From NCBI GenBank assembly GCA_965234725.1, contig CBDDUX010000085.1, positions 1-16,083 of the forward strand: 16,083 nucleotides of DNA, in the 5' to 3' direction. Positions 543 to 16,083 of this stretch are shown one piece after another. The DNA is from Thermoplasmatota archaeon. GTDB taxonomy: Archaea > Thermoplasmatota > Penumbrarchaeia > Penumbrarchaeales > Penumbrarchaeaceae. The number at the start of each line of letters is the position of its first letter. The stretch's first letter is position 1. The notes beneath the pieces were generated by a model, which did not search any database, was not told the origin of the DNA, and saw nothing but the letters and a program-made list of their open reading frames with translations. The position numbers were made by a program, and so were the translations under genes.

Positions 543-2348
543 TCATTCCTCTTTGCTATCTTCAGATATCTTGTCCTTTTTACTCTTACTCAAGGTAACT
601 GCAATGACAGCAATTATTGCAATAAGGATCAGCAATCCACAAAGACCACCAAATATTGGAAGAGCAGCGGAAGCCAGTTTTGAATCACTTTCAGCATCTT
701 TATTTTTATTTTTAAGGATGAAATTTCTTTCCTCGTAATCAATCTGATTCCCCAACCAATCGAAATTCTCAACTCTGACGGTATATTCCGAACTAGGTAG
801 ATTTCTTAAACCCAATTCTGCACTTATTGACCTGCCATCGGATTCTTCAGTCAACACAACCTTACCGTTTGAGTCTGTAACTGTGACCTGTGTTCTTCCT
901 ACCAACATTTTTCCTGCAATATCGTTCTTGTCTACACCAGCGGTGTCGATTTGAACAACCCCGTTCGCTTCAAATGTTTCTTTTTGGTCAGGGTAAAGAT
1001 CCAATATTTTCGAAAATTGATCATCCTCTACCCACCATAAATGTGACATAGTCATTATGTTGTCTTTTCGTTTTGGATCAGGTGTTGGAGGTTTCACCAT
1101 GTCAGAAGTATCCGTGATAGTAACACCCTCTCGATCTGCTATGACTGCGGTGGTTGTTTCTGGTAGTATTACAACATCGAAGATCCCTTGAAATTGGGGC
1201 TCTTGGTACGTCAGAATCACATCAATATATTCCTCGGTTTTCGCGTCATATACAGGGGAGGTGTACGTGACCGGTTCAAGAAAGGTCCTTAACTCGAAAC
1301 CGGTGGAAAAACCACCTTCCCAATTTGAAACCTTCTCATTTGAATTATCGAAATGAAATAATCCAATATTTCCTCCTTGGAAAAAAGGTCCAACTTCTTC
1401 TGAAAATCTTGGATGGATATCAAGTATTCGAGTTTCAATGTATACTTGGTTTTCCCCTGATCTGGTGATCTCTTCTCCTTGTGAAAGGAAGGCAGTTGGA
1501 AGATGAATGAATTTCGAAGTATCGTCTCTATCAAAACAGGCAAGATAGTAATCCTTACCTGTGGATGTTTCATTAAAATGGAATGCGACATAGATATCTC
1601 GTGTTGTGGTATCATACAGGAGTGAAAAGATCTCTCCGATCGGTGTGTATCCACTTTTATTGGCGATATCAGTTACATTGAAGATCTCAGTTGAAATTGT
1701 GTTTGTACTCAAATCCAAGGTTTGGATGTTCATATTTGTTTGGGTCCTTGTTGTAGAGAACCATAGCAGATTCTCTGTTGGTTCCTGGAAGAAGTCCAGA
1801 ATTCCTCCAGGCTTCAATCCTGAGTTCTTGTCCAGTTTGGTTGTGATATTCTGTGATCCGACATCGATTATCCATAGTCCATCATTACATGCAAGATATA
1901 GCGTATTCGTATCCGCATTGTATTCAAGATCATTGATCACATTTGCATAGTAATTCAACCACATCCTCTGGATGGTTCCATTCGATAGCCATATTGTTTC
2001 AAGTGTAGTCCTGTAGGCTTGATATCCACTACCTGTGATGGCAAACAGTACATTGTCATCTTCGTTGTAATGTATCTGATATACAGAGTTAGATTCAATA
2101 TCAGGTGCGGTTATATGCTCAATTGTATCGTTGTTTCTGTGGATCAATGATATTCCATAGTGCCCTGTATATGTTACAATAATAAGGTTACCATCTTGAC
2201 CTACCTCGACATGTTTTGGTTCACCTTTCAAAGGTGTCATAGGATCTTCTGTTGTAATGGTCTCGGTTTCAGCGTTTGCTATAACTGGGATAATTAATAA
2301 AAAAACGAACAAAAACGCTATTGTACATGCCAAATGTCTATCTTTCAT
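543..2348 (-). CDS. Secreted, C-terminally membrane-anchored beta-propeller-like protein (paralog A, 601 aa)
   Basis: Probable start is MKDRHL at 2348, preceded by a GGGGG RBS-like run and followed by a signal peptide. Blade-like motifs (LYLACNDGLWIID, ILDFFQEPTENLLWF), an Ig-like segment, then a TM helix and basic tail. Paralog of 2474..4240. Confidence 0.8.
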   Translation of the reverse strand: MKDRHLACTIAFLFVFLLIIPVIANAETETITTEDPMTPLKGEPKHVEVGQDGNLIIVTYTGHYGISLIHRNNDTIEHITAPDIESNSVYQIHYNEDDNVLFAITGSGYQAYRTTLETIWLSNGTIQRMWLNYYANVINDLEYNADTNTLYLACNDGLWIIDVGSQNITTKLDKNSGLKPGGILDFFQEPTENLLWFSTTRTQTNMNIQTLDLSTNTISTEIFNVTDIANKSGYTPIGEIFSLLYDTTTRDIYVAFHFNETSTGKDYYLACFDRDDTSKFIHLPTAFLSQGEEITRSGENQVYIETRILDIHPRFSEEVGPFFQGGNIGLFHFDNSNEKVSNWEGGFSTGFELRTFLEPVTYTSPVYDAKTEEYIDVILTYQEPQFQGIFDVVILPETTTAVIADREGVTITDTSDMVKPPTPDPKRKDNIMTMSHLWWVEDDQFSKILDLYPDQKETFEANGVVQIDTAGVDKNDIAGKMLVGRTQVTVTDSNGKVVLTEESDGRSISAELGLRNLPSSEYTVRVENFDWLGNQIDYEERNFILKNKNKDAESDSKLASAALPIFGGLCGLLILIAIIAVIAVTLSKSKKDKISEDSKEE

Positions 2349-2397
2349 AACGACCCCCCACAGATCTAATAAATATCCAATTGACAAACTAAGATTT

Positions 2398-2449
2398 AAC
2401 ATATAATACTTTTTAATGGTTCCAAATCTGATTAATGATAGAATGTTTT
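2398..2449 (-). promoter_or_regulatory. Repeat P, copy 2; contains the BRE/TATA-like promoter of paralog A
   Basis: Minus strand reads AAAAAGTATTATATGTT about 50 bp upstream of the ATG at 2348. Near-identical to 4290-4341. Confidence 0.65.
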
Positions 2450-2473
2450 CATTTTTTTTGTCCCTTTGGGTAT

Positions 2474-4240
2474 CTAGTCTATCTTCTTCTTGTTTAAAAA
2501 TACCAAGATTGCAGCAATTATTATACCAAGGATCAATAATCCGCAAAGACCACCAAATATTGGAAGAACTGCCGAAGCCAGTTTTGACCCACTCTCACTT
2601 TCAGATGGTTGATCAGGATTGTCCAGGATGAATTTACATTCCTCATAATCTATTGAATTACCGATCCAATCCGATCTTTCAACTCTTATGGTATATTCAG
2701 AACTTTTCAAACCAGATAATTGAAATTCCACTTCCATTTCTCTACCACCCGTTTCATGGGTATAAACCACGTTTCCTTTTGAGTCGGTAATGGTCAGTAA
2801 TGATTTGCCGATAAAAAATGAATCTAACGGATCTTCTCCTTCAAAGTCTTTGGTCAAGATCGAAATGTATCCTTCTGCTTTCACAGTTTCAATTTTCTCT
2901 TTATCCATATTTAATGACTTTCCAGCATCACTTTCATTTTTATAATATTCTGCCAGGAAGAGGCCACCTTTGATCTTAAGCATGGTTTTTGCAGGAATTA
3001 CCATATCGCCCAGATCATAGAAATATAAACCTTCAGATCGGCTGACAGTAGCAGTCGTTGAATCGGTTTCTACAACCACATCGTTTGGTCTCTCGATTTC
3101 CGGTTCTTCGTAATCTACTTCAATATCAACCCATTTCTCAGTCCCTTTGTCAAATCTAACTGAAGGACGTCTCACCGTTTTTGTGAAGGTTTTTATATTC
3201 AGCTCATCATCTGTTGTAGAGATCTTTTTAATCGGGGGATCAATATAGAATAGCCCTATTCCATATCCGCTGAATAAAGGACCCACTCCATTTTTGTTCC
3301 TTGAATGCATCCTGTTGATATGGAATATCTTCCAACCCAGATAATCATCGGATCTGGTGACCTCTTTCCCCTCTGAAAGATAGCCGGTGGGGAGAGGGAC
3401 AAAGTGTGATGTATCATCTCTGTCAAAACACGCCAAATGGAATATCTCACCTGTTATTGTTTTGTTGAATTGGAATCCAACATAGATATCTCGTGTGGTA
3501 GTATCATAGATGAATGTCAAGATAGGACCTTGTGGTGTGTATCCATTCCTAATAGCAATATCTGTTACATTAAAGATCTCGGAAGAAACTGTATTTGTAC
3601 TCATGTCCAGGGTCTGGATGTTTACATTATCCTTCGACCAGGATGTGACAAACCATAACAGGTTTTCTGTAGGTTCTTGAAAGAGGTCCCACACACCTTC
3701 AGATTTCAATCCGGTGTCTTTGTTCAATTTTTCAGTTATTTCCAATTCATCCACATCGATTATCCAGAGACCATCAGCGCATGCGAGATATAGTGTATTG
3801 GTAAATGCATTGTATTCCAGATCTGAAACTGAGGGTGCATAGTAATTGAGCATCACTTTTCCAATTGTATCGTTGTCAAGCCAGATGATCTCAAGTGTTG
3901 TATATCGGTTATCAAATCCAATACCTGTGACAGCAAATAGCACATTGTCATCTTCGTTGTAATGAATCCGATGTACCGAGCCTGAATGAATGTCCGGTTC
4001 AGTGATGTGCTCTATCGTATTGTCATTTCTGTTGATTATTGAAATTCCATAGTTATCTTGGTAGGATAAGAATATCAGGTTCCCGTCCTGTCCTGTTTCA
4101 ATATATTTTGGTTCACCCTTCAGAGGTGTCTCCGGATCTTCTGTTGTGATCATCTCCACTTCGCTGTTTCCCATCGCTGGGATCAAGGCAATAAAAATGA
4201 ATATGAACGCTGTTGCAACTGCCAATGAGCTCTCTTTCAT
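2474..4240 (-). CDS. Secreted, C-terminally membrane-anchored beta-propeller-like protein (paralog B, 588 aa)
   Basis: Probable start is MKESSL at 4240 with a GGGGGA RBS-like run. Signal peptide, the same motifs as paralog A, and the shared anchor SKLASAxLPIFGGLCGLLIL. Confidence 0.8.
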   Translation of the reverse strand: MKESSLAVATAFIFIFIALIPAMGNSEVEMITTEDPETPLKGEPKYIETGQDGNLIFLSYQDNYGISIINRNDNTIEHITEPDIHSGSVHRIHYNEDDNVLFAVTGIGFDNRYTTLEIIWLDNDTIGKVMLNYYAPSVSDLEYNAFTNTLYLACADGLWIIDVDELEITEKLNKDTGLKSEGVWDLFQEPTENLLWFVTSWSKDNVNIQTLDMSTNTVSSEIFNVTDIAIRNGYTPQGPILTFIYDTTTRDIYVGFQFNKTITGEIFHLACFDRDDTSHFVPLPTGYLSEGKEVTRSDDYLGWKIFHINRMHSRNKNGVGPLFSGYGIGLFYIDPPIKKISTTDDELNIKTFTKTVRRPSVRFDKGTEKWVDIEVDYEEPEIERPNDVVVETDSTTATVSRSEGLYFYDLGDMVIPAKTMLKIKGGLFLAEYYKNESDAGKSLNMDKEKIETVKAEGYISILTKDFEGEDPLDSFFIGKSLLTITDSKGNVVYTHETGGREMEVEFQLSGLKSSEYTIRVERSDWIGNSIDYEECKFILDNPDQPSESESGSKLASAVLPIFGGLCGLLILGIIIAAILVFLNKKKID

Positions 4241-4289
4241 AACGATCCCCCACAGATCCAATAAATATCCAATTGGCAAACTACAACTG

Positions 4290-4356
4290 AACATATAATA
4301 CTTTTTGATGGTTCCAAATCTGAGTAATGATAGAATGTTTTAGTAGGTCCTCCCAA
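4290..4356 (-). promoter_or_regulatory. Repeat P, copy 3; contains the BRE/TATA-like promoter of paralog B
   Basis: Minus strand reads AAAAAGTATTATATGTT about 50 bp upstream of the ATG at 4240. Homologous to 415-481 and 2398-2449. Confidence 0.65.
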
Positions 4357-4494
4357 TGATAATGATTTTCCTATACGATCATGATTATCAACACCTGTTA
4401 TCTGGCCGATCTGTGATTGATCATGCATTATCTGGTTTGTAGAGCATGAAATGTTAGAAAATAACGAAGTCACAAATCGATTTGAAAGATTCAA

Positions 4495-4908
4495 TCATGA
4501 TATTTTTAAATCCACTATTCCCGTGATCTCTCTCATTTTCTGGATCGTTCTTTCCGAAGGTTCCTCATTGACCATAATGAAGTAATATGGTGGATCATGA
4601 TAAGGCCCATCCAGTGTGTCTATCTCAAGAAGGTCCATAAGATCTTCGATCCCATCAAGATCATCCTCGAATTTCTCTGGGTCCTTCACATATATTCGGA
4701 TGAAAAAGAGTGTTCCATCTTCTTTTTGTTTCTTCATCTTCCTTTGGTCATCCCTGTAAGAGTGCAATTGGTGAGATGAAAGTGTTATTCTGGGTAACGG
4801 ATCTCCCTGCCATCCACAAAAAGTACATTTATTCATCTTTTTTCCTTTATCATTCGAAAATGATTCGATATCAAATATCCTGCAATCTGGACAAATGGGG
4901 CCACTCAT
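4495..4908 (-). CDS. Zn-ribbon protein with a possible ACT/ferredoxin-like C-terminal domain
   Basis: CPDC...CTFCGW at the N-terminus. The C-terminus shows an alternating strand/helix pattern ending TIQKMREITGIVDLKIS. TATA-like TTATATAT about 25-30 bp upstream suggests a leaderless transcript. Confidence 0.7.
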   Translation of the reverse strand: MSGPICPDCRIFDIESFSNDKGKKMNKCTFCGWQGDPLPRITLSSHQLHSYRDDQRKMKKQKEDGTLFFIRIYVKDPEKFEDDLDGIEDLMDLLEIDTLDGPYHDPPYYFIMVNEEPSERTIQKMREITGIVDLKIS

Positions 4909-4978
4909 TATATCGAGATAAAATGAGAAATATCAATATATAATTCCTTCTAGTATTTTCACTAAAGAAAGATTCATT

Positions 4979-5359
4979 CTAATCGCCAATATTCAAACCC
5001 AGTTCCACATCAAGGTCTTTGATCCGTGTTATCAATGCGGATCTAATATCGAAATCATATAGAATAATATCCTTTAAAAGGGAAATATATCTCTCTCTTT
5101 TGGCAACTGCTTCCTCGATTTGATTGAAATCAGATAGGTCCATTTCATTCATGATATTGAGGATCATCCTAAAGGATGATTCCCGATCCATCATTTGAGC
5201 TTGTCTGAAACCGGGTCCTGAATTCATGCATTCTGGACAGTTCCCTTTGGTCTCCGGGTAGATCAGGTCACAGTAGATACAACTTTGAATGGCTCCCTGC
5301 TCGGGTTGATTTGGAATCTGAGATAGCTCTTCCATGAACTCATATGTGAATTCATGCAT
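4979..5359 (-). CDS. Hypothetical Zn-ribbon protein
   Basis: 126-aa ORF with CIYC-x9-CPEC and a helical C-terminus, co-oriented with its neighbours. Confidence 0.7.
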   Translation of the reverse strand: MHEFTYEFMEELSQIPNQPEQGAIQSCIYCDLIYPETKGNCPECMNSGPGFRQAQMMDRESSFRMILNIMNEMDLSDFNQIEEAVAKRERYISLLKDIILYDFDIRSALITRIKDLDVELGLNIGD

Positions 5360-5389
5360 TTTATAGGTTCACTCTATTTGTTATTGTAA

Positions 5390-5731
5390 TCAACCATGAA
5401 GTCCTTCGAAAATGAAAAAAAGTAGTTCTCCCACTTCATACTGGCCCTCCCAGGGGGGACGATTGGGTGTAATAATATATTGAGACGATATTTCGATCTT
5501 CCCATCTCCAAGGTATTTCAAATTGCCTCTGTATGGAATTCTTTCTTTGGTTTCCCTTACGGTTTTTATCGATTGAATGTAGTAATATTCATCTGATTTT
5601 AATTGATCCAGACCGGGTCCGGAAGGATATTTATTCAGATCAAATTTCAAATAGTAATTATCATTATCTTTACAAATAATACCAATGTACATTTCACTTT
5701 CCTTCATATCTTCGATCGATAACATTTTCAT
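5390..5731 (-). CDS. Hypothetical protein
   Basis: 113-aa ORF with GAGGT just upstream, separated by short gaps from co-oriented neighbours. Confidence 0.65.
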   Translation of the reverse strand: MKMLSIEDMKESEMYIGIICKDNDNYYLKFDLNKYPSGPGLDQLKSDEYYYIQSIKTVRETKERIPYRGNLKYLGDGKIEISSQYIITPNRPPWEGQYEVGELLFFIFEGLHG

Positions 5732-5766
5732 ACCTCATATCCTAATCCAATTGGATGAGAATTATC

Positions 5767-6066
5767 CTAATCTACTTTCTTAATATTCCTATGATAACTA
5801 CCAAGTGTTTCAATACTCGGTGAATATGTTTCTTCAATATAGAATCCTTTTTCAGTTGGATCCATGAATTCATTTTCTGTAATTTCCTCTGGATCAATAT
5901 CAATAACCGATTGTAACTTATCAAGATCCCCTGGATCCTCAATTAAATAATAAAATTTCGTCTCTTCAATAATTTCATAACTTTCACATGAACATGCTTT
6001 GGGTGGCAGAGGATATTTCTTTTTACAATTTGGACAGATATAAGGTTCGTTTGAATATTTGATCAT
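5767..6066 (-). CDS. Hypothetical Zn-ribbon protein
   Basis: 99-aa ORF with CPNC-x10-CSC and an acidic C-terminus. Confidence 0.65.
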   Translation of the reverse strand: MIKYSNEPYICPNCKKKYPLPPKACSCESYEIIEETKFYYLIEDPGDLDKLQSVIDIDPEEITENEFMDPTEKGFYIEETYSPSIETLGSYHRNIKKVD

Positions 6067-6085
6067 AATCAGATGAAGGTTTCAT

Positions 6086-6103
6086 CCACAGATAAATCTG
6101 TGG
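6086..6103. promoter_or_regulatory. Palindromic operator candidate
   Basis: Perfect inverted repeat CCACAGAT-aa-ATCTGTGG 20 bp upstream of the start at 6066. A second IR, GATGAA-ggt-TTCATC, is adjacent at 6072-6086. Confidence 0.4.
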
Positions 6104-6275
6104 GTATTGACCATACGTTCTTGTAATAATTGAAATCAATAAAATATTGGTTTACTAGATAGCAGATTAAAACGATCTTGAACTGGAATAAATTGGCCAG
6201 AGATAAATCACTAGTCGAGTGCCAACCATTGAGGTGACGGGATCTCACTACATTTTGCCATATTCAAGGGTTGAA

Positions 6276-6296
6276 GTGTCAGGGACTGGGTTTGAA
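6276..6296 (-). repeat. att-like tRNA 3'-end fragment, copy 1
   Basis: Minus strand reads TTCAAAC-CCAGT-CCCTGAC-A-C: 7-nt T-loop, 5-nt T-stem strand, 7-nt acceptor strand, discriminator. Confidence 0.65.
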
Positions 6297-6419
6297 AGAA
6301 TCCTTAAAACTTCCAGAAAATCAAAGATTTTCCTTACATTGAAGGTTGTGATCTTCAAGATGTCAAAAAGGTATCAAAAATTAAAGAATTTATCTGAATT
6401 GCCTTCGGGAGAGATCAGA
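6297..6419. repeat. Conserved cassette left end, type A, copy 1
   Basis: Homologous to 8912-9037. Contains hairpins GAAAATC-aaa-GATTTTC and TTGAAGGT-tgtg-ATCTTCAA. Confidence 0.85.
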
Positions 6420-6726
6420 CTGGAAAAGGAAAGGGCCCGGTTTCCGAGCCTACTTATTCCATCTTTGACCATTTGTTAATTAATTCATCCAAAGGATAGC
6501 AGATTCCATTATTATACTCGCGGAGTAATCTATAGAAAAAAATGTCAAGGGAATAATAAATTGATATGATATTTATTAAAAAGTGAAAAAAAAGTTATCT
6601 TCATGAACATCTCTGCACTTGATTCGGCTAAATTATTTTCATATAGGTATTTAAAAGGCCACTCTTAAAATCTAAAATTATATATTCCTTCAATGCTTAT
6701 ATATCTATCAATTAGGTGGAGATGAA

Positions 6727-8577
6727 ATGAAAAGAATCTGGATATTGATACCGTTCATACTAATTGGTATGCTTCTCATACCCTCCATTATCTGGGCAGA
6801 GAAGACTGATGAGCTTCCGATCAGGGTCATTGTAATGTTCCAAGAGAATGTAGATCCATATTCCGTTGTGACCGAGGATGATGTACAATTAGAACTTGAG
6901 ATCATCAACGGAGTAGCAATGATGGCAACCCCGGCAAAGATTAAAACTTTGAAGAATAGAGATGATGTCAAGTCGATTACAATGGATAATCCGATTAAAG
7001 CTGCAGAATCCACACCTTACACAAGACTCCCATGGGGTGTAAACAGGATGGATGCGGATATGGTCTGGAATCATGTCGATCCTGATACAAGTGTGGGAAA
7101 TGGTGTGACAGGGGATGGGATCCATGTTGCTGTTCTGGACACGGGGATAGATCTCGATCATCCTGATCTGGTCAGCAACATAGGTACGGGAATTAACTAT
7201 GTCCAGACGGTCAACCCACGTGGAAAGGTCATGTCATACGATCCCACCGCATTCGACGATGATAACGGACATGGAACCCACTGCGCTGGGATCATTGCCG
7301 GTGATGAAGCTAATGTTGGTAACGGTATGATAGGTGTTGCTAGGGATGCTACGGTCCACCCTGTTAAAGTTCTGGACAAGAACGGGAACGGATACACCAG
7401 CTGGCTTGTGAGCGGCATTCAGTGGTGTGTAGATGATGGCAATATAGATGTCATATCCATGTCACTCTCGTCCACATCAAGTGATCCGAACGTCGAGACT
7501 GCCTGCAATGTTGCGGAGTCAGAGGAAATCATTCTTGTTGCAGCTGCTGGCAATTACGGAGATGGGGATCTGGATACTGATGAGATCGAATATCCTGCTT
7601 CATACAGCAGTGTGATCTCTGTCGGCGCAACTGACCGTCACGATGTTCTTGCTGAATTCTCCTCATCAAGTCCTTATGTGGAAGTTGCAGGACCAGGGGT
7701 AGACATCTACTCGACCTATATGGGAGACGGATACGCGACAATGAGCGGAACATCCATGGCTTGCCCTCATGTCGCTGGGACGGTAGCATTGATGCTGGAG
7801 AGTGGGATCCCACCTATTTCTGATAACGAGGAGGTGTTGGATGTCCGAGATAAACTGACTTCTTTAGCTGATGATATCGGGGTTTCTGGTTGGGACTCCG
7901 GATCTGGAGCGGGTCTGGTCGATGCTCTAATAGCATGTGGTTTCGATGACAATTTCGCACCCATGATAATAGAGGTAAGTTCGGTCGTGACAGATGACTC
8001 CGCCACCATCAGCTTCCTCACCGATGAGCCCGCTACGGCCGGGATAGAATACTGGGCGGAGGGAGAAACAACTCATTCCGACTCCTCCGATTCAATTGAT
8101 AAGATCTATCATTCCATCTACATCAACGACCTTGAAGAAGGTACGAAGTACTTCTATCAGATCTCGGCCGTAGATCTCTCAAATAATCTAGGGGGAGAGG
8201 AAAGGGCGGAAAATAGAGAGTTCACCACCACCGGTGGAGTAACGCCACCTCCAGATGAAGATGCCATGCATGTGAAGGACATTTCGGTAACTACAAGTAC
8301 CAAAGGTGCGAACAAGTATATCGCCACAAAAGTACTCATCGTTGATTCTTTGGGGGTTGCAGTGGGTGGTGCAACTGTTACCTTAGAGATCACTCTTGGA
8401 TCTGATACCATTTCCACATCAAGTTCAGTCACCGGATCAGATGGATATGCTTCCTTCAGTCAAAAGGTGAAATCCACTGGAATATACACCATTGTAGTCA
8501 CGGGAGTTGTGAAGACCGGTTGGATATACGACAGCTCAAGCGACGAAGTGACATCGGCTGAAGCTAAATTCGATTGA
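6727..8577 (+). CDS. Secreted S8 (subtilisin-family) serine peptidase with C-terminal Fn3/Ig-like domains
   Basis: Signal peptide, propeptide and catalytic triad motifs VAVLDTGID, NGHGTHCAG and SGTSMACPHVAG. Oxyanion motif AAAGN. RBS-like AGGTGGAG upstream. Confidence 0.95.
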   Translation: MKRIWILIPFILIGMLLIPSIIWAEKTDELPIRVIVMFQENVDPYSVVTEDDVQLELEIINGVAMMATPAKIKTLKNRDDVKSITMDNPIKAAESTPYTRLPWGVNRMDADMVWNHVDPDTSVGNGVTGDGIHVAVLDTGIDLDHPDLVSNIGTGINYVQTVNPRGKVMSYDPTAFDDDNGHGTHCAGIIAGDEANVGNGMIGVARDATVHPVKVLDKNGNGYTSWLVSGIQWCVDDGNIDVISMSLSSTSSDPNVETACNVAESEEIILVAAAGNYGDGDLDTDEIEYPASYSSVISVGATDRHDVLAEFSSSSPYVEVAGPGVDIYSTYMGDGYATMSGTSMACPHVAGTVALMLESGIPPISDNEEVLDVRDKLTSLADDIGVSGWDSGSGAGLVDALIACGFDDNFAPMIIEVSSVVTDDSATISFLTDEPATAGIEYWAEGETTHSDSSDSIDKIYHSIYINDLEEGTKYFYQISAVDLSNNLGGEERAENREFTTTGGVTPPPDEDAMHVKDISVTTSTKGANKYIATKVLIVDSLGVAVGGATVTLEITLGSDTISTSSSVTGSDGYASFSQKVKSTGIYTIVVTGVVKTGWIYDSSSDEVTSAEAKFD

Positions 8578-8820
8578 AAGATGGGTTAATAAAGGTAATA
8601 TACCCGAGAAGTCAGGTCCAACTTGTGTTATCACTTATTAATACTTACGCATCTATAAGAAGCTTCCATATCTTGAATAGGAAAGGTAAGAAGAATTCTC
8701 CCCCTGCGAGGACCTCTATGGCGTTCCTGCTCTTGAAGTTGATGAAGAAGGATTGACAACTTCAGAGTTGAAAGACTATATTCACGAACAGATCGAGGAT
8801 CTTGAAGGAAAAGAATGAGG

Positions 8821-8890
8821 TGTCAGAGACGAAAATTGATGTCAACATTGGAAAAATATATATATTTATTCTAATATAATATTCAATAAA
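8821..8890. repeat. Conserved cassette right end, copy 1
   Basis: Aligns with 11624-11691 (TGTCrGrGACG...CAACATTGGAAAA(A)TATATA...ATAAT...). Abuts att-like copy 2. Confidence 0.8.
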
Positions 8891-8911
8891 GTTTCTGGGA
8901 CTGGGTTTGAA
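8891..8911 (-). repeat. att-like tRNA 3'-end fragment, copy 2
   Basis: GTTTCTGGGACTGGGTTTGAA, 19/21 identical to copy 1. Confidence 0.6.
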
Positions 8912-9037
8912 AAGACCCTTAAACTTCCAGAAAATCAGAGATTTTCCTTACCTTTGAGGTAGTGACCTCCAAGATGTCAAAAAAGATACTCAAAATGAAT
9001 GAACCTCTTCTGGATGCCTTCAAGATAGATGATCAGA
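8912..9037. repeat. Conserved cassette left end, type A, copy 2
   Basis: Homologous to 6297-6419, with both hairpins retained. Confidence 0.85.
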
Positions 9038-9140
9038 TCAAACTACTAAATCATATACGATCTCAGATGTTATTTGGGTGATTCCCATGAGAATGGAACA
9101 GGTCCAATCAGGAAGTCCTCCCGAAAAGGACAGGAAATAA

Positions 9141-11360
9141 TCAATCAACAGTGAGAGTATACGGTACGGAGAAACTCCCGTCAATGGTCTGAAATTCAAT
9201 ATATCCAGTCACCGATTCTGGATCCATGGATCCGGAAAATCCCGTGAACATCTCGCCACCTTTTTGCTTCACAGAGAACCTCGATGTTGTCCCCGATACG
9301 GACTGATCGATGTTTATCGGTCCATCCGATGGTATACAAGCGATATGCGGACATCCACCAACCCCTGTGGCCGACCATTCTCCGGAGAACTGAAGCATTC
9401 CGGCCATCTTCCCGTCCTCCTGCACTTCTGCAAAAAAGGTGCCGGTCATGACAACATAATATTCGAACGTGCTCGCAACTACACCGCACAGCGGGCAATT
9501 GGTCGTCCGTGTGAACGTAGCCGAGCCATCAAACGTTCCCGAATAGGCTATCCGGCCGGGCAGGACCTGAGGGATAGCGTCCTCAAACGGAATGCTCGAC
9601 CCGTCCTTTAAAATGCACAGTTTCTTGACGGGTGCGCCAGGCTCACCCTTGAAAAGTGTCCTCAGCTCATCTGATGTGCTGGACATCTTGTTGTCAGTGA
9701 GCACCACTCCTCCCCTAGGTTCTCCGGCTCTGAATCTTTTGGCCTCCTCCAGTCCTTCATCGAACTTCTTGAGAAGGCCAAGCTGGTCCTTGAACAGCGC
9801 TATCACCGGAACTCCCATTTTGTCGTCGGAGACGGTTTCCAACGCAGTCTGCAATGTTCCCGAGGGAGTCGGGATCTCACCGGTCGCCAGTTGGGTGAGC
9901 CATGATGTTCCCACCGCGATTGCCACTTGAGCCGCGAGCCCTATCGCAAGCGGAGCCCCGCCGACGATACCTGTTACCATATTGAATAGACCGTAGCAGA
10001 ACTTACCTGCCGCAGGGACCAACTCACTGCCGATCTCGTACTGCTTCATCGGTATCTCCCTGAACTGTCTATAATCCTCCCTCCAGGATTCCGGCAGCTC
10101 ATCACCAGAGACCGGGTCAGACCTCGTGAATGATCCCGCACGGGTTTCGTTCGAGGGGAATACATTGACGATACGATGCACGGTGTTCAGGAGCAATCTA
10201 TCCATTTCTATTATGCCCTCAGTATCCATCAGGGTCGTTTCGTAGTCGATCGTATTCAGGGCGATCGACCCCCGATCTCCCGCAATCAACTCATCCAACT
10301 GGAGCATCAACTCTGCGAGCGATGTACGATGGTCCCACAAACGGGAGATTAAGTCTGGGTCCGTAGCATTAGTGAGGATCTCATCCAAGCTGTCCAGGCA
10401 GGCAGAGATGAATAGATGTGTGTATACTCCGGTTCTGATCGTATCACCCATCTCCAGCATGGGCCTGATCTCCAGACCCTCCAGGACGTTGGAGGTCATG
10501 ACCCGGTCCTTTGAAACCTGTACGACCTTCACATCGGTCCTTCCGCTCAGGAACCGGTCCGAACCGTTCAGGAAAGGCGGAACCACGACCTCAACCCTTT
10601 TCTCATCCGCATATGTCGCGGGGATCAATACGGTAATGCCACCATCTTGCCCCGTGAAGGCCACAGATATCGCGGAGCCTTCGGGATCGAAGCCCGAGCC
10701 CGTAATATTTAACAAGGTCATTGGATCCACACTTGAAGCTCCCATAGAATCGATGTGGATGAATCGGACCTTCTCTTCATGATCGACCGCGTAGAATACA
10801 ATTACACCTGTGAAAATCGTAAGGAGGAGAAGAACGACTAAAATAATGGTGACCGTTCCCATACAAATTATAGGTCCCTTGAAACTCGTCTCCTTACAGG
10901 CTGAAGAATGTGAGTTCCTTGAAGGACCTTTGTCGGGGCTTGTTTGTTTTTTAGTGACATGTGGTCTGACCTTGGGGCTATTTTTTTCTTCGACTGTACC
11001 AGAGGTCTTTTTCTTTGATCGTCTTGATATTACTACTACCAAGATGATAATGAGTAGGATCAGTAACGCTCCACCTGTCATGCATGAACCACAAATGAGG
11101 ATCCTTACCAGGATTGAGATAAGGGTCAGATCCTTCCCCGAAAGCTGATTTGTCGAATTTGAAGGATCGATCCAAGTGTTATTTTCTTCGTCATTTTCGG
11201 AGGGTCCGATTGTGTTGTTGGCAGATAGGATCTCCCTGGAAGGATTGATGATCGTGGATCCGCCCTCTAACGTGTCGTTGCCCATGATTGGGAGGACAGC
11301 GATCAGTGTGACGGTAATCATGGCTAAAGAAAAAATCAGAATGAAATATCGTTTCAGCAT
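9141..11360 (-). CDS. Membrane-anchored protein with an IPT/TIG-like domain
   Basis: 739-aa ORF with an N-terminal signal and two further hydrophobic helices. LLNITGSGFDP...VAF...RVEVVVPP is IPT/TIG-like. The C-terminus is beta-rich with four Cys. Confidence 0.75.
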   Translation of the reverse strand: MLKRYFILIFSLAMITVTLIAVLPIMGNDTLEGGSTIINPSREILSANNTIGPSENDEENNTWIDPSNSTNQLSGKDLTLISILVRILICGSCMTGGALLILLIIILVVVISRRSKKKTSGTVEEKNSPKVRPHVTKKQTSPDKGPSRNSHSSACKETSFKGPIICMGTVTIILVVLLLLTIFTGVIVFYAVDHEEKVRFIHIDSMGASSVDPMTLLNITGSGFDPEGSAISVAFTGQDGGITVLIPATYADEKRVEVVVPPFLNGSDRFLSGRTDVKVVQVSKDRVMTSNVLEGLEIRPMLEMGDTIRTGVYTHLFISACLDSLDEILTNATDPDLISRLWDHRTSLAELMLQLDELIAGDRGSIALNTIDYETTLMDTEGIIEMDRLLLNTVHRIVNVFPSNETRAGSFTRSDPVSGDELPESWREDYRQFREIPMKQYEIGSELVPAAGKFCYGLFNMVTGIVGGAPLAIGLAAQVAIAVGTSWLTQLATGEIPTPSGTLQTALETVSDDKMGVPVIALFKDQLGLLKKFDEGLEEAKRFRAGEPRGGVVLTDNKMSSTSDELRTLFKGEPGAPVKKLCILKDGSSIPFEDAIPQVLPGRIAYSGTFDGSATFTRTTNCPLCGVVASTFEYYVVMTGTFFAEVQEDGKMAGMLQFSGEWSATGVGGCPHIACIPSDGPINIDQSVSGTTSRFSVKQKGGEMFTGFSGSMDPESVTGYIEFQTIDGSFSVPYTLTVD

Positions 11361-11623
11361 GGAGAGACCATCTTATGGACGCCTGTTGATTTAGATTTAT
11401 GGAGTTGTCTTGTTATTAATGGCTTCTTCTTCCGTTATAAAAAAAATAAAAATGGAACGGGATCTGGATATTCTCCCTGATCGATATTGGGAATATCTCT
11501 ATTGAGTTCCAGTTCCGAATAAATACGTAAAATGATTGACAACCAACGAGTTATAATACTAATTAATGTAAAGGTGCAAGAACTCTTAGGATCAAAATAA
11601 AGTGAAGGGTTCTAACTCTCAAA

Positions 11624-11691
11624 TGTCGGGGACGGAATCTTTGCCAACATTGGAAAATATATACAATAATTTTAAGATAATGGTAAAATAA
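11624..11691. repeat. Conserved cassette right end, copy 2
   Basis: Aligns with 8821-8890 and begins with an internal partial att motif, TGTCGGGGACGG. Confidence 0.8.
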
Positions 11692-11707
11692 GTGTCGGGG
11701 ACGGGGT
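11690..11707 (-). repeat. att-like tRNA 3'-end fragment, copy 3
   Basis: AAGTGTCGGGGACGGGGT, an exact 18-bp direct repeat of 11966-11983. Confidence 0.75.
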
Positions 11708-11965
11708 CCTCTTCCTCATCAATTACAATTTGATTCCGCAAAACCTTCGGTTTTGCTCAGGTTGAGCATTTTTGATCGTCGATTCCAAGACACCAGATGC
11801 TCAACCACCTGGACCGATTACATATTAATTATTGGGGTTCAATCTATGAAAAATCAAAGATTTTTCAGACCTCCTCGCCCCTTATAAATTCCAAATTAAT
11901 CTTCCACTCGGAGGACCCCTAAGTCACCGAAAACTACTATCTACCATTGCTTAACAATGGTAGTA
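11703..11965. other. Gene-less, highly structured mini-unit between two att-like repeats
   Basis: Closing IR GGGGTCCTC (11703-11711)/GAGGACCCC (11911-11919). Hairpins at 11738-11756, 11760-11806, 11847-11867 and 11941-11963. Confidence 0.6.
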
Positions 11966-11985
11966 AAGTGTCGGGGACGGGGTTT
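11966..11985 (-). repeat. att-like tRNA 3'-end fragment, copy 4
   Basis: AAGTGTCGGGGACGGGGTTT; the minus strand reads AAAC-CCCGT-CCCCGAC-A-C. Confidence 0.75.
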
Positions 11986-12130
11986 ATCTAGTTAAGTCAA
12001 ATGATCTGGAAAATGCTCCGAAAAACCCCTTTTCGAGAAAAGATTTCCGAGCGGATGACGGATGGAAGCGAACGGACCGAGATATAAAGAAGCCCCTTTC
12101 AATGCGTCGGGAGGGGCCTCGCTCTTTTAA
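11978..12130. repeat. Conserved cassette left end, type B, copy 1
   Basis: Homologous to 15720-15875, with an identical 27-bp block (12021-12047 = 15762-15788) and a GC-rich hairpin at 12089-12120. Confidence 0.9.
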
Positions 12131-12146
12131 TTTCCTTTAAAAAGAT

Positions 12147-12698
12147 TTATTCCTTATACTTCAATATCTCCTTCTTCAATCTCAGGAAAGTTTCCTTATC
12201 GATATGTTCTTCAGAAAGATCCTTAACAAGAAGTAAAAGCATCTCATCAATTATTAAATCACGATTAATGATTCTATAGCAGATCTCATCACCATTTCTT
12301 TTCTCAATAATTATCTTTTTTCGGAGAAATTGATCAATGGTATAGGAAATTTTTCTTTTATTTTCCGAAGTTAAATTCAGAAGTTCGCCTCTTGTGATAT
12401 TCGGTCTTGTTTCTATCAGCTTCAATATCCTTTTCTGATATTGTTTGAGTGAAGATTGATAGGTTTCATAACCGTTATTTTCACCGATGAACAAGGATGC
12501 AAAATAACAATTTTTTCCATTCTTAAGACATGATCTGATATTATCTTCTTTGATCAGGAAATTCAAATGGTATCTCAATGTTCCTTTGTTAAGGTTGAGC
12601 ACATTCTTTATCCTCCCAAAGGTGGCTCCAGGATTATCCCTGATATAATTGAAGACCAGTTCCCTGTTCCTGTTATCAGGTGAAGATTGATTTTTCAT
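12147..12698 (-). CDS. Tandem winged helix-turn-helix transcriptional regulator (COG3398-like)
   Basis: NRELVFNYIRDNPGATF...LNKGTLRYHLNFL, then a second wHTH, QKRILKLIETRPNITRGEL...ISYTIDQF. Probable start MKNQ at 12698 with RBS-like AGGTGG; the ATG at 12734 is an alternative. Confidence 0.88.
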   Translation of the reverse strand: MKNQSSPDNRNRELVFNYIRDNPGATFGRIKNVLNLNKGTLRYHLNFLIKEDNIRSCLKNGKNCYFASLFIGENNGYETYQSSLKQYQKRILKLIETRPNITRGELLNLTSENKRKISYTIDQFLRKKIIIEKRNGDEICYRIINRDLIIDEMLLLLVKDLSEEHIDKETFLRLKKEILKYKE

Positions 12699-12730
12699 AA
12701 GGTTAAAACCACCTTCGCTGAATTCTCTCC

Positions 12731-15451
12731 TCATTCTTCAGAGCCGTCAAGTACACTGAGTGCCGAAAGAAAAATCCTTCGGTCAATAATTCCATTTTCG
12801 TATTTTTTTCTTAGATTCCGTCTCAATTTTCGTTTGGCATTTTTCTCCATATCAAGTTCTTTGAACGAAAGGGCTCTGTTTTCAAGAACTCTGAGATACT
12901 TCTCATCTTTGAAATTCATATCTTCCAGGATCTCTGGATCACAGTCTAACTCACTAATAGAGGTCATATGGACATTCCTATATCTCATCCTACCGGTGCC
13001 TTCAAGTTCGAGAAGACCAAATTTTACTTCAATCTCATTGTTAGGATAGCTTGGAGGTCCATCGGGAGATCGAATATTAATGGCTCCAGGCGTACCCATA
13101 TGATCCTCTATTGTATTATCGGAAATTCGTCCCCTTATCTTTCTCTTAAAGATTACAAAAGAAATGACAATTGATACCACCAGGACAATAATGAGAATAA
13201 TAAATATCAAGATCCCGAGATTGAGATCATGATCCGGATCTACTCCTGCATCGGTTTCTTTTACCATGACCTGTCTCGATATATTGATCCATTCGCCCTT
13301 TGCATCTGTTATCCTTAAAGTGAGGTTGTATTCACCTGCTGATAGGTTCAACAGGATCGAGAGACCATATCCCGCGATCTGATTTTCATCAAGGAACCAT
13401 GTGAAATTCAGATCCTCAAGATCAAGATCATTTAACAAACTAGTGTTCAAGGAAAAGGTCTGATTCCTGCCTTCAAATATTTCTTCATCACCAAGATCGA
13501 TGCCAATATCCAGGTCTTCGATATCCTCGACCATAATCCCTTTGATCACTTCAAATTGGAGAATGGCAGAATCAGTACCTCCATTTCCATCTTGTACAGA
13601 TATGTTTACCCAATAGGTTCCAACTTGTGATATGGTTGGAGTACCAGAAAGTAACCCGGTCGAATTATCTATCACGAGAAAACTGCAGTTGGTAGTGAGA
13701 GACCACACTAAAGTGTTATTTGTGGGATCGATGTCATGAGCCATGACAAGGAACAAATATGCATTCAATGCTTTAGCATCTGGAAGAATACTTGTGGTTA
13801 TCCTTGGAGGATCATTAACATTCCAGACTATCAATGTATAATTTAGATAGCGAAGAGCTTCCCCGCTGGCAACCGAGACATTGACAAAGTAACTTCCCAC
13901 ATCATCATTTACTGGAATTCCATTGATAACTCCAGTTGCTTGATCTATCTGGAGGAATGAAGCATTCGTTGTGAGGGACCACGTAATGGCTTCATCCCAA
14001 CTGGCATCGAAATCCATGAAATAGTGACTGTCCTCAAAACAGTAGTTCATATCCGATGACTCGTTGTATATAATTCTCAAAGGAGCAGGATCTCCCGGTA
14101 ACACGGTTATTGTGAAATTAATGAATAATTGTGATTTCTCGTCTTCAACTGTAATGTTCACCCACCAATCTCCAACATCCGATGGTTTTGGATTCCCACA
14201 GAGGTCATAAAATGGAGGGTTTAAAAGTTGAAGCCATGTTGAATTGGTACTGAAGGTCCATTCAAGATCGTCCAAAGGTGTATCGGCGTCTATAAATTGA
14301 TTACCATAACTATCAAAGATTGTGCCCCCTACATTCACTTCTTCTCGTTTCACACCCCTGAACACAGGTGGATAGTTTGTAGTATGGGGTGATACAAGAG
14401 GATATCTATCTTTTGAATTACCACATTCATATGGTATATCAAATGTACCATTTGGCAGAGCATTTGCAGAAGAATATCTTTTTGCATAATCATTCCAATA
14501 ATTACCCAATTCGATCAGACCCCAATAACCCCAATAATTTATCGAACCCGCTTCCGCTTGAACTCCCCCGTCATTATTGGAATAGAAATTGTTGCCGATA
14601 ATCCGATTCCCGTCACTTGAGACTATTCTGATTCCAAGTCCATTGCAATCCTTAATATTGTTTCTCATAATATTATTTCTATCGGATCCATTACTGATCG
14701 ATATTCCAATACCTTTGCTCCCTTCAATCGTAGAATTCACTATCTTATTCTTGATCGAATTATTGATTTCTATGGAGTTTTGCCCGGAGTAAATAATTGA
14801 ATTTCTAATTGAGTTTAGGCTCCCATCAATAATCCTTATCCCAGATGTATTCCCGGTGATAATACTAGTATCAATTGTAATATTCTTTGATTGCTGGATA
14901 TTGATTCCAAATCTGTATGCGCTTATATCACACTTTTCGATGGTTACTCCATCACCATTTCGAAGATCGATCCCGGCAAGGCTGTGGTTCTTGATTTTGC
15001 ATTCTTTAATCTCGGTTCCTGGTTCTGAATTATTGTTAAAATGGATCCCTGACCAATTGTAAGATAAAGGGTCATCCATCTGAGAAGCTATTCCTGAGAT
15101 GTTTAAACGTTCGATCGAACAATATGAGGTGTTGATGGAGATTACATGACCTTTACCGTTTCCTTTGATAATTGGAAGATCTGGAATTGCTCCAACAAGT
15201 TTCACATCCTTATCGATTACAATATTTTCATTGTAGACACCAGGTGACACGAATATCGTTTGGTTCTCCCCTATGGTCGAATTATCGATCGCCTCCTGAA
15301 TAGTTGAAAAATCTAAATCAACCCCCACATAGAAAGTGGACGATCTAGACACCTTTCCTTCCGATCCCGATGATGGAAGATGCATCACAGGGAAAATCGA
15401 CATAATAACAATAAGGATGAGGGCCATTATCGATCGAATTTTGATATTCAT
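12731..15451 (-). CDS. Cell-surface protein: NosD/CASH-type parallel beta-helix, cadherin/putative-Ig repeats, PKD-like domain, C-terminal TM helix
   Basis: Signal peptide, FSTIQEAID...IFVSPGVYNENIVIDK, GI-x-I...N-x-I-xx-N repeats and GNYWNDY. Three Ig-like repeats ending G-x-P...VG-x-Y/W-x-VN. TM helix before a basic cytoplasmic tail. RBS-like GGAGTGA. Confidence 0.9.
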   Translation of the reverse strand: MNIKIRSIMALILIVIMSIFPVMHLPSSGSEGKVSRSSTFYVGVDLDFSTIQEAIDNSTIGENQTIFVSPGVYNENIVIDKDVKLVGAIPDLPIIKGNGKGHVISINTSYCSIERLNISGIASQMDDPLSYNWSGIHFNNNSEPGTEIKECKIKNHSLAGIDLRNGDGVTIEKCDISAYRFGINIQQSKNITIDTSIITGNTSGIRIIDGSLNSIRNSIIYSGQNSIEINNSIKNKIVNSTIEGSKGIGISISNGSDRNNIMRNNIKDCNGLGIRIVSSDGNRIIGNNFYSNNDGGVQAEAGSINYWGYWGLIELGNYWNDYAKRYSSANALPNGTFDIPYECGNSKDRYPLVSPHTTNYPPVFRGVKREEVNVGGTIFDSYGNQFIDADTPLDDLEWTFSTNSTWLQLLNPPFYDLCGNPKPSDVGDWWVNITVEDEKSQLFINFTITVLPGDPAPLRIIYNESSDMNYCFEDSHYFMDFDASWDEAITWSLTTNASFLQIDQATGVINGIPVNDDVGSYFVNVSVASGEALRYLNYTLIVWNVNDPPRITTSILPDAKALNAYLFLVMAHDIDPTNNTLVWSLTTNCSFLVIDNSTGLLSGTPTISQVGTYWVNISVQDGNGGTDSAILQFEVIKGIMVEDIEDLDIGIDLGDEEIFEGRNQTFSLNTSLLNDLDLEDLNFTWFLDENQIAGYGLSILLNLSAGEYNLTLRITDAKGEWINISRQVMVKETDAGVDPDHDLNLGILIFIILIIVLVVSIVISFVIFKRKIRGRISDNTIEDHMGTPGAINIRSPDGPPSYPNNEIEVKFGLLELEGTGRMRYRNVHMTSISELDCDPEILEDMNFKDEKYLRVLENRALSFKELDMEKNAKRKLRRNLRKKYENGIIDRRIFLSALSVLDGSEE

Positions 15452-15665
15452 ACAGAATCACTCCATATTTGTTTTCAAAGAAAGGATATAAGAACAGTAT
15501 TTAGATAAGTTATCAACCAGGTTTTTTGTATATCTGGCCTAGATGGTTTATATTAAATTTGTGTGAAATTGATCGTTCTTTTTCAAGTGATTTATATTCT
15601 GAAAAAAACCTGTAACTGGTACGAATTGAGATTTGGACATTTGATTCTCTCGTGTTCAAACACTG

Positions 15666-15700
15666 TGGTGTCGTATAACTATGTCATGGTGTCGTAAAAC
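15666..15700. repeat. Tandem 14-bp direct repeat TGGTGTCGTAwAAC with a 21-bp period
   Basis: 15666-15679 and 15687-15700 differ at one position. Confidence 0.75.
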
Positions 15701-15719
15701 AACCCCAAATTTTGTAGAT

Positions 15720-15875
15720 CGGGGTTTAATGAAAAAAGCTAAAAAACAAGAAAAAGGTCTAAAAAACCCCTTTTCGAGAAAAGATTTCTAAGCGGATGAT
15801 GGAAAGAAGAGATTCGGACCAAGAAGAAAAAGAAGCCCCTTCCAAACGTGTCGGGAGGGGTTTCGCCCATTTTTT
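15720..15875. repeat. Conserved cassette left end, type B, copy 2
   Basis: Homologous to 11978-12130. The hairpin at 15832-15864 is followed by a T-run. Confidence 0.9.
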
Positions 15876-16039
15876 TTCTTCCTGTTTTAAAAATGAAAGT
15901 AGGTTTTGGTTTCATTCCATTTTGCATTGTTAATTGAGCTTATGCAACTGGAAGACATCATTCGAAATCAAATTATTACATGCCTCACAATAAGAGTGAA
16001 AAAATGAAAAATTAATCTATAATCCGAAAAAACAAAAAA

Positions 16040-16073: not shown

Positions 16074-16083
16074 TTTAGATCAA

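Follow-up and report, generated by a model that had tools for sequence, protein, structure and literature searches.

Displaced 3′ ends of an intron-bearing tRNA(CAU) gene delimit tandem cassettes in a probable accretion island of a Thermoplasmatota archaeon

A contig from an uncultured Thermoplasmatota archaeon carries a short direct repeat that equals the 3′ part of an intron-bearing tRNA(CAU) gene of the same genome. The stretch analyzed here, called the window, is the entire contig C85 (CBDDUX010000085.1; 16,083 bp) of a 3.54 Mb metagenome-assembled genome (MAG) in 114 contigs, with a contamination figure of 2.54%. This source genome is labeled G000 and its contigs have C-numbers; relatives are numbered from G001 upward, and G004 is of the same genus. 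With a probability of about 0.75, we take the repeat to be the core of an attachment (att) site used in tRNA-targeting recombination, a displaced 3′ part of tRNA(CAU), and the window to be the far end of a tandem accretion island of cassettes similar to cis-mobilizable elements (CIMEs). Five parts of this reading are directly observed: the repeat matches the tRNA; arrays on one strand follow that tRNA in five genomes; content varies between conserved flanks; a relative has an integrase-bearing element at this tRNA; and one cassette has been exchanged between species with its breakpoint at the core.

At up to three mismatches, the delimiter GTGTCRGGGACKGGGTTT occurs at four sites in the window (6276, 8891, 11692 and 11968), all on the plus strand. 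The expected number of sites is 0.01, and none of 200 shuffles reached four. Read on the minus strand, copy 1 (6276..6296) is cTTTCAAACCCAGTCCCTGACAC, or TTCAAAC-CCAGT-CCCTGAC-A-C, with two mismatches in the 18-mer, and copy 2 (8891..8911) is TTCAAACCCAGTCCCAGAAAC, with three. Identity to the tRNA starts at A59 in copy 3 (11692..11709; ACCCCGTCCCCGACAC). Copy 4 (11968..11985) is gatAAACCCCGTCCCCGACAC, or AAAC-CCCGT-CCCCGAC-A-C, and equals the tRNA gene at 18 of 18 positions (C75 14987-15004); the other copies have 2-3 mismatches. The 5′ strand of the T-stem is missing from the copies, which have ATTCT or CTAGA where the real tRNA has GCGGG, and ARAGORN found no tRNA in the window. An earlier, preliminary description had parsed copies 1 and 4 in just this way, as tRNA 3′ ends without the 5′ T-stem strand, and its readings were correct letter for letter.

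The same description predicted a target tRNA that begins with GTCGGGG, has discriminator A and ends in TTCRANY-CCCGT-CCCCGAC-A. Such a gene exists on contig C75, so that the genome does hold a tRNA with the end whose absence had been named as grounds for giving up the idea. ARAGORN, with introns allowed, places it at 14887-15005 (+), beginning with GTCGGGG and ending with GGGTTCAAACCCCGTCCCCGACACC, with discriminator A and a 3′ end of TTCAAAC-CCCGT-CCCCGAC-A-CC. It scores 54.1 bits (E=4e-9) against the Rfam tRNA model. Its anticodon loop contains CUCAU, after which ~45 nt are inserted, and this makes it a CAU tRNA with an intron at the canonical position. The ARAGORN label Ser(aga) was rejected because it misplaces the intron. 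The genome's two other CAU tRNAs begin with AGCGGGG and GGGCCAGT, the latter start being shared with tRNA-Ile(GAU). By elimination, and by the tRNA identity rules that we presume to hold here, the intron-bearing gene is probably the elongator tRNA-Met. At E≤1, Rfam searches of the window and C75 returned only the two tRNAs of C75 and a chance match to IsrM.

Copies of the tRNA(CAU) end are spread across the genome in a highly ordered way. Downstream of the C75 tRNA and in the same orientation are three more copies, at 15777, 16030 and 18187. At two or fewer mismatches, the 18-mer has 18 sites on nine contigs: C75 (the tRNA and its three copies), C53 (three), C72 and C106 (two each), C22, C44, C90 and C92 (one each), and C85 (three, to which copy 2 is added at three mismatches). 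On every contig with more than one copy, all copies are on one strand. The reversed-pattern control gave no matches in the genome search set.

Arrays behind this tRNA are not limited to G000. The 18-mer is present at one or fewer mismatches in 13 of the 41 genomes searched, with 13 copies in G000, at most four in any other genome and none for the reversed control. The same intron-bearing tRNA, followed by at least one copy, occurs in G001, G003, G007 and G009; G003 and G007 have a single short unit, while G004 has nine cores and G000 has at least nine on C75 and C85 together. The intact target tRNA is found in the orientation of the repeats on C75 and in G001, G003, G007 and G009, and for the window contig by way of synteny with G004. 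Relatives differ by presence and absence at this conserved site and do not share cargo: no close DNA match to the window cargo was found in 40 relatives, the best being a 68% match to the subtilase gene in one genome. Junction modules and arms are 71-91% identical in G001, G003, G004, G007, G011, G015 and G016, which represent three genera.

We read each junction in tRNA orientation, with a left arm upstream of the core and a right (P′) arm downstream. Left arms fall into types A through E. Type A occurs at window copies 1 and 2 and at C75 15777 and 18187. Type B, about 165 nt long and opening with a terminator-like hairpin, occurs at window copy 4, at window 15728-15878, and on C53, C72, C44 and C102. 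Type C is found on C22, at C53:35 and C72:18117, and twice on C106, type D at window copy 3 and C75:16030, and type E on C90 and C92. The A arm is a C arm with an insertion of about 50 nt. In one family of right arms, CGACACC recurs with a spacing of ~21 nt, starting with the acceptor end of the tRNA itself. Identity to the tRNA starts at T54 with A and C arms, at A57 with B and E arms and in G009, and at A58 or A59 with D arms; it ends at C74 or C75. A T-arm mimic, GCGGAATCAAAT, occurs only in the D arm; arms of types A, B and C lack the 5′ stem strand.

The junction at 15720 has a different right-hand side. It shares only AAACCCCG with the other copies, and consists of a B arm, AAACCCCG, ATCTACAAAATTTGGGGTTG and then ACGACAC repeats. 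In window coordinates, this second form spans 15640..15727 (minus strand), with an ATCTAC..GGGG hairpin after AAACCCCG and the ACGACAC repeats phased at ~21 nt. It belongs to a second junction family, AAACCCCG|ATCTACMAAATTTGGGG, with six members in the genome at no more than 5 mismatches in 25, the window's included, and eight copies aligned. The others are C44:9221, C44:19447, C53:8113, C72:347 and C72:22757, with looser matches at C72:5182 and C102:4948. The preliminary description took the copy at 15720 for the most eroded one and worried that it did not fit an age gradient; both remarks fall away with its recognition as a second junction form. With it, the window has at least five junctions in tandem.

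The two junction forms bear on where recombination takes place. Left arms of types B and C each occur with both right-hand forms, and AAACCCCG (tRNA positions 57-64) is the sole part the forms have in common. Because the same left arms join two right-hand sequences that share only this octamer, we infer that strand exchange probably occurs within AAACCCCG, which covers the 3′ half of the T-loop and the 3′ strand of the T-stem. A crossover in the T-loop had been proposed in the preliminary description. The identity blocks begin in the T-loop at every junction type, at this tRNA and at others, as a crossover in the T-loop or T-stem would predict.

One cassette without an integrase gene has been exchanged between species as a unit, with its breakpoint at the core. 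Over 1875 nt, this AbiE cassette of C106 in G000 is 99.3% identical to its counterpart in the G004 array, and the flanking genes are 81-92% identical. The identity sets in precisely at the core's left edge. Its left neighbor is a C arm following cas genes in G000 and the B arm of another cassette in G004, and the sequence past the next core also differs between the two genomes.

An element with its own integrase occupies the same site in G009, a member of the same family but another genus. There, 4.7 kb lie between the tRNA and the repeat GAACCCCGTCCCCGACAC, and this element encodes, next to the tRNA, a tyrosine integrase of 388 aa that matches PF00589 (E=3.3e-36) and also has a SAM-like N domain. 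The left arm of the G009 element resembles the A and C arms of G000, with z scores of 3.2-4.7 for six of seven (C72:18117 has z 1.5). Against the four C arms in that z range, 46-48 positions are identical over 74-76 columns. Comparisons with the B, D and E arms gave z scores of at most 1.5.

These observations fit a simple model of island growth. A circular element carrying a matching stretch would recombine either with the tRNA gene or with a copy displaced by a previous event, whereupon the element's copy would complete the tRNA and the old copy would be pushed downstream. Repeated events would build a tandem island, with the window as its far end. The units now between the copies are built alike: the core is followed by a right (P′) arm, in which CGACAC repeats are phased, then by cargo that has its own promoter, and finally by a left (P) arm, whose type is A/C, B, D or E. 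The overlap is predicted to be 6-8 bp within TTCAAACCCCG. The units keep both att sites and have no integration or transfer genes, the property by which CIMEs are recognized; an integrase gene inside the element is absent from the window units and from array contigs C75, C53, C106, C90 and C92, and present in the G009 element. A tyrosine recombinase supplied in trans may still move the units.

If the window is the far end of the island, the tRNA should lie on the minus strand beyond its right end, where the preliminary description expected it. Synteny with G004 supports this placement. In G004, nine copies (three or fewer mismatches) are on one contig and one (minus) strand over ~17 kb, reaching the contig end. 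Beyond the far end of that array are an acetyl-CoA-carboxylase-like gene and then homologues of four small zinc-ribbon-like genes found in the window at 4495..6066 (minus strand; no Pfam match), the tRNA-distal flank of the island. The match is 90.5% identical over 1644 nt (G004 L010 3-1645, on the same contig as the array, against window 4466-6108). On the basis of this synteny, the window would be the tRNA-distal part of the island. DUF4352 and FG-GAP genes 5′ of the tRNA are common to C75, G003 and G001.

Contigs of a marine-sediment metagenome run (X1), a possible source of the MAG, also speak to the placement. One goes from window position 11985 into GAACCCGCGACCTCCGGATTTCTCCGGGTA, the reverse complement of the tRNA body, so a tRNA joined directly to the flank of copy 4 exists in that sample, although the joint could stem from a co-occurring relative. 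Three other X1 joints (6311 to 11966, 12068 to 15827 and 15713 to 11979) were considered as excision products and rejected, as they have short sides or reflect other copies of the B module. The X1 depth drops along the window (2333, 1910, 1770, 1663, 1318, 1163); depth is no measure of the share of cells and serves as a hint only.

The contig ends were searched for the neighbors of C85. No exact overlap of contig ends joins it to C75. By BLAST, the last 52-54 nt of the window (16030-16083) recur without mismatch at the ends of 12 other contigs; they contain the small hairpins GCATTCC..GGAATGC and GAGCC..GGCTC; because the last 52 nt are common to so many ends, overlap cannot resolve which contig adjoins C85. 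Positions 1-55 are identical to the ends of three other contigs. These end sequences are a dispersed repeat at which the assembly breaks, or else an overlap of the assembly graph. Judged by its translation, window 1-395 seems to be the 3′ part of a gene similar to FAD oxidoreductases (the scanned open reading frame [ORF] at 144-395 had no Pfam match), and C22 38-1180 seems to be the 5′ part of one. The left ends of C85 and C22 may abut in this gene.

Displaced tRNA ends in this genome are not confined to the tRNA(CAU) island. The 258 nt between copies 3 and 4 (11710..11967, minus strand) form a non-coding mini-unit with a palindrome (d2), an inverted T-arm-like box, two hairpins and a T-loop mimic, GGAATCAAAT, and are 80% identical to C75 15777-16047. 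Their 104-nt core defines a family with five nhmmer matches in G000. Its other three members lie ~50 nt behind tRNA-Gly(ccc), tRNA-Gly(tcc) and tRNA-Glu(ttc), and are then followed by exact repeats of the tRNA 3′ end of 20, 31 and 29 nt. Of 41 genomes, 9 contain the 104-nt core (they belong to genera g1, g4 and g6), and 19 of 25 core loci have a tRNA upstream on the same strand. With two tRNA-Met loci and one contig-edge locus left out, repeats of 15 nt or more were found at 13 of the 16 loci tested, each beginning 15-24 nt ahead of the tRNA end, and these repeats often reach 10-16 nt into the private 3′ flank of the tRNA. Behind tRNA-Arg(gcg) are four identical 143-nt tandem units and one more; their sequence is unrelated, and their architecture is again palindrome, inverted T-arm-like box, two hairpins and T-loop mimic. 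Such non-coding units, of ~140-260 nt, were noted at window 11710-11967, C109 20610-21115, C63 67934-68169, C26 23399-23674, C20 24644-25415 and C31 30898-31062; they lie ~50 nt behind tRNA genes, and after each comes an exact copy of the tRNA's own 3′ part that begins within the T-loop or just past it.

The same trend is visible in the whole set of tRNA genes. A copy of at least 14 nt lies downstream on the same strand of the same contig for 15 of 47 tRNA calls. For 30 of 46, the 13-nt T-stem plus acceptor strand has an exact extra copy outside tRNA genes, where a hand estimate puts the chance expectation at ~0.1 per 13-mer. A count of 43 of 47 was set aside, since it is inflated by T-arms that tRNAs have in common. 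A T-loop-directed process is thus at work across the lineage, with the tRNA(CAU) island as its largest case.

Several results weigh against the island reading. No integrase (PF00589) was found in the window or on C75, C53, C106, C90 or C92, and none was found among the 22 ORFs scanned in the annotated 26 kb of the G004 array region. Among the 37 genomes of the class, only G009 itself has this integrase (no homologue elsewhere at E≤1e-30); its best match in G000 is 27% identical, and such matches (25-27%) are to XerA-like genes. A search for related loci with this integrase returned only G009's own. Neither an excised circle nor an empty site was found for any of the window cassettes. The link between C85 and C75 rests on synteny, with no overlap. 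Copies 1 and 2 have both a variant, CCCAGT, and a left arm in common, a pattern consistent with gene conversion or with a crossover placed more to the right. Finally, copies on separate contigs of a 114-contig MAG may come from co-occurring strains, as the two 80%-identical versions of the mini-unit on C75 and C85 hint.

Where a recombinase acting in trans might come from was addressed by scanning the genome. G000 has seven PF00589 matches, and among the array contigs only C44 carries any. There (19288-21807), and on C102 (4775-8345), a ribbon-helix-helix (RHH) gene (173 aa), a XerA/XerD-like recombinase gene (310 aa) and a gene for 177-179 aa form a module that adjoins tRNA-Thr(ggt) and tRNA-Thr(cgt), respectively. 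The module adjoins a B junction of the hairpin form, and C44 has two more cassettes. At 2 or fewer mismatches, no 3′ fragments of tRNA-Thr were found near the C44 and C102 modules. At E≤1e-40 the XerA-like recombinase is present in four genomes beside G000, at 69-70% identity only in G005 and G015. A scan for SSV-type integrases (PF16795) gave no matches in the genome, and a scan for serine recombinases gave none linked to the arrays. One serine recombinase gene (C62 27551-28422; PF00239, E=6.8e-36) lies 360 nt from the second tRNA-Cys(gca) gene.

Other explanations for the arrays need to be considered. The units could be inert relics, decayed elements that once bore integrases, in an array altered since then by deletion, duplication and homologous recombination between arms. 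The lack of an integrase on the G000 array contigs fits this explanation, as do the degenerate distal copies 1 and 2 (two and three mismatches), a gene remnant at 8671-8824, and the four identical 143-nt units behind tRNA-Arg(gcg), which resemble products of unequal crossing-over. Decay is also given as the usual origin of CIMEs in the portion of PMC5704250 that deals with them. We nonetheless regard pure relics as unlikely: arms on both sides are kept across genera while cargo is not, the AbiE cassette is 99.3% identical between species with a core breakpoint and differing neighbors, and the same left arms are joined to two right-hand forms. An assembly or binning artefact, in which strain variants of one short locus were merged in one MAG, deserves hardly any weight. 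The assembly is fragmented (114 contigs) with 2.54% contamination, unitigs end at each of the junctions, and depth decreases along the window, though depth does not give a share of cells; against these stand five copies on one contig, the window itself, and nine on one contig of the 20-contig G004 assembly.

An integron-like platform would put a resident recombinase, with the RHH, XerA-like and 177-aa module of C44 and C102 as the candidate, in charge of capturing and shuffling cassettes at AAACCCCG, the tRNA(CAU) T-arm being one natural target among others. C44 does have three B junctions in one orientation (9225, 16361 and 19451), with the 310-aa recombinase and tRNA-Thr next in line, C102 is arranged likewise, and this is the sole integrase physically beside such modules in G000. 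Yet the recombinase was not found in G001, G003 or G004, even though G004 (83% complete) has a nine-copy array. The best hit to the integron integrase model TIGR02249 scored 33.1 bits against a cut-off of 265, the B junction has local hairpins only and no single attC-like hairpin (z -1.78), and the cassettes are mixed in orientation, with the subtilase gene on the other strand. We judge this platform to be very improbable. Improbable to a still greater degree is the idea that the repeats are functional RNA or regulatory elements, such as processing or termination signals co-transcribed with tRNAs. Three hairpins are kept in the mini-units despite differing stems, the units sit at a fixed distance behind many tRNA genes, and a terminator-like hairpin opens the B arm, all of which an RNA function could explain. 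It would leave other facts aside: no Rfam family appears in the window or C75 at E≤1, the repeats copy each tRNA's own 3′ part, often with 10-16 nt of private flank, and they bound kilobase cassettes that differ between species as well as an integrase-bearing element with the same ends. Accretion of cassettes by tRNA-targeting recombination remains our preferred reading.

The window between its copies is filled with diverse cargo, on the minus strand except where plus is given. Copy 1 is followed by a P′-arm-like flank (d1′; 6174..6275) resembling those after the cores at C106:12240, C75:16030 and G004 L010:16476 and 18413; an 86-aa ORF spanning copy 1 had no Pfam match, whereas an SSV-type (suicidal) element would have its att site within the integrase ORF, with int fragments on both sides of the element. 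The A-type left (P) arm of the first cassette (6294..6415) is 78-79% identical to window 8879-9030, C75 15637-15796 and 18043-18205, and C22 14119-14234. Its cargo is a secreted subtilase with Peptidase_S8 and Ig-like domains (6727..8577, plus strand; PF00082, E=1.4e-56). Adjoining this gene is a remnant of the conserved C-terminal tail of a surface protein (gene 3′ end, 8671..8824, plus strand), 83-90% identical to sequences on C37, C27, C92 and C17 and 77% to one on C72, which suggests that cargo was replaced inside a cassette. Next are an AT-rich P′ arm (d3; 8825..8890) with a degenerate second partial core at 8820-8832, and copy 2.

The second cassette has an A-type left arm (8909..9042), recognized by its match to other A arms, and encodes a 739-aa membrane or secreted protein of unassigned family by ORF and Pfam scan (9141..11360). 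A weaker partial core, TCCGTCCCCGACA, is located inside its d3 P′ arm at 11623..11640, and G001 L017 1097-1183 has the same layout after the tRNA. Past copy 3, the mini-unit and copy 4 comes a B-type left arm, a terminator-like hairpin plus ~130 nt (11986..12140), 87-91% identical to two copies on C53, two on C72, C44 19289-19451 and C102, and 76-85% identical to two further C44 copies. It belongs to a cassette with a winged helix-turn-helix (wHTH) regulator of the HVO_0163 type (12147..12734; PF24266, E=3.9e-8) and a 906-aa surface protein with beta-helix, He_PIG and PKD regions (12731..15451; PF13229, E=3.4e-24; PF05345, E=8.6e-17). After the second-form junction, the B-type left arm of the next, tRNA-proximal cassette (15728..15878) is 80% identical to window 12009-12134 and 88% to C44 16217-16367.

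Cargo on the sister contigs includes ParE/DUF7557 and AbiEii/AbiEi toxin-antitoxin pairs and giant surface proteins with wHTH partners, and the G004 array carries ParE, AbiE (twice), DUF2202 and surface-protein genes. To the left of the small zinc-ribbon-like genes, window 543-4294 holds two tandem paralogous surface-protein genes of ~72% DNA identity. A conserved 67-nt element lies beside each paralogue and a third time after the pair (415-481, 2398-2464 and 4290-4356). The gene at 543-2453 has a homologue inside the G004 array at 92% identity. On C106, a CRISPR-Cas set (251-12257) ends at a C-type arm and core; Cas3 was identified by Pfam, and the Cas2-like and Cas4-Cas1-like ORFs were called from their N-terminal sequences. 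This CRISPR-Cas set may be cargo of the island. On C22 (6639-14237), an acetyl-CoA-carboxylase-like gene lies between a C-arm core (6639) and an A-type arm (14073-14237). Since such a gene is bracketed there and forms the array flank in G004, the island appears to have engulfed, or been rearranged around, a housekeeping-looking gene on C22.

Displacement of tRNA ends by integration is a known process. The T stem-loop is one of three sublocations of att sites in tRNA genes, with 5′ limits that vary in archaea, and intron-bearing tRNA genes are used, according to the relevant sections of PMC8371274. The identity blocks seen here, from the T-loop to the tRNA 3′ end, belong to this T stem-loop class (Williams 2002, as covered in PMC8371274), in which cleavage is expected at the T-loop borders and binding at the stem arms. 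Tyrosine-recombinase elements re-use one site and form arrays, as part of PMC6563490 describes, accretion is treated in the passages on CIMEs of PMC5704250, and integrations leave tRNA fragments behind, as mentioned in PMC9897764. Partial tRNAs also occur between and beyond elements in tycheposon islands, as the text excerpted from 10.1101/2020.12.28.424599 has it. Among the papers listed in our literature searches, none was on such arrays or mini-units in Thermoplasmatota. The process itself is known; it is unusually extensive here, and mostly lacks an integrase gene.

Each known system resembles the island in part. Like CIMEs, the cassettes have flanks of the attL/attR type made of the tRNA 3′ end, lack integration genes, stand in tandem behind one tRNA and carry toxin-antitoxin and surface cargo. 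In contrast to CIMEs, they are archaeal and far more numerous (the window has at least five junctions, the MAG 18 sites), include units of 0.14-0.3 kb without any gene, and have several arm families kept across genera; no conjugative or viral helper was identified here. The tycheposon islands of Prochlorococcus are, in the same excerpt, likewise variable islands at tRNA genes, with partial tRNA copies between elements, older ones scattered, and elements far rarer than islands. No tycheposon-type recombinase or replication module was found here, however, the host is one of the Thermoplasmatota, and arms on both sides are recognizable. Archaeal elements with non-suicidal tyrosine integrases, of the pNOB8 type and related (PMC8371274, in the sections noted), also use a tRNA 3′ part with a variable 5′ limit as att, including in intron-bearing tRNAs, and the G009 element has its PF00589 integrase next to attL. 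The att identity is 16-21 bp here, compared with the 40-60 bp given there for Sulfolobales and Methanococcales, and most units have no integrase. Integrons and clusters of attC sites lacking integron-integrases (CALINs) share with our arrays the small integrase-less cassettes, conserved sites and variable cargo that includes toxin-antitoxin genes. They differ in that our arrays have neither IntI nor a single attC-type hairpin, are mixed in orientation (the subtilase gene being on the opposite strand), have cassettes with their own upstream regions, and use a tRNA 3′ end as the site.

A broader proposal is tempting, but we hold it only tentatively. Part of this archaeal family (three of seven genera searched) could conceivably run a general T-loop cassette capture, in which non-autonomous units, defined by their structured arms alone, would depend on a recombinase in trans to insert, stack and swap them behind many tRNA genes. 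The units would range, on this somewhat doubtful extension, from non-coding minis of 0.14 kb to gene cassettes of 7 kb, and possibly to a CRISPR-Cas locus. It is a speculative thought, too, that the tRNA(CAU) island might work as an integron without a linked integrase, with the mini-units as the "MITEs" (miniature inverted-repeat transposons) of integrative elements.

A tRNA predicted from short repeats alone, with its GTCGGGG start and discriminator A, could be checked against the genome, and the prediction holds. The island is the main hypervariable region of an uncultured sediment archaeon, rich in surface proteins, proteases, and toxin-antitoxin or abortive-infection genes, and it turns over between species. 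T-loop-directed recombination appears to be unusually pervasive in this genome. If the integrase-less cassettes and mini-units are truly mobilized in trans, they would be a source of short natural att sites and an archaeal counterpart of CIMEs or integron cassettes.

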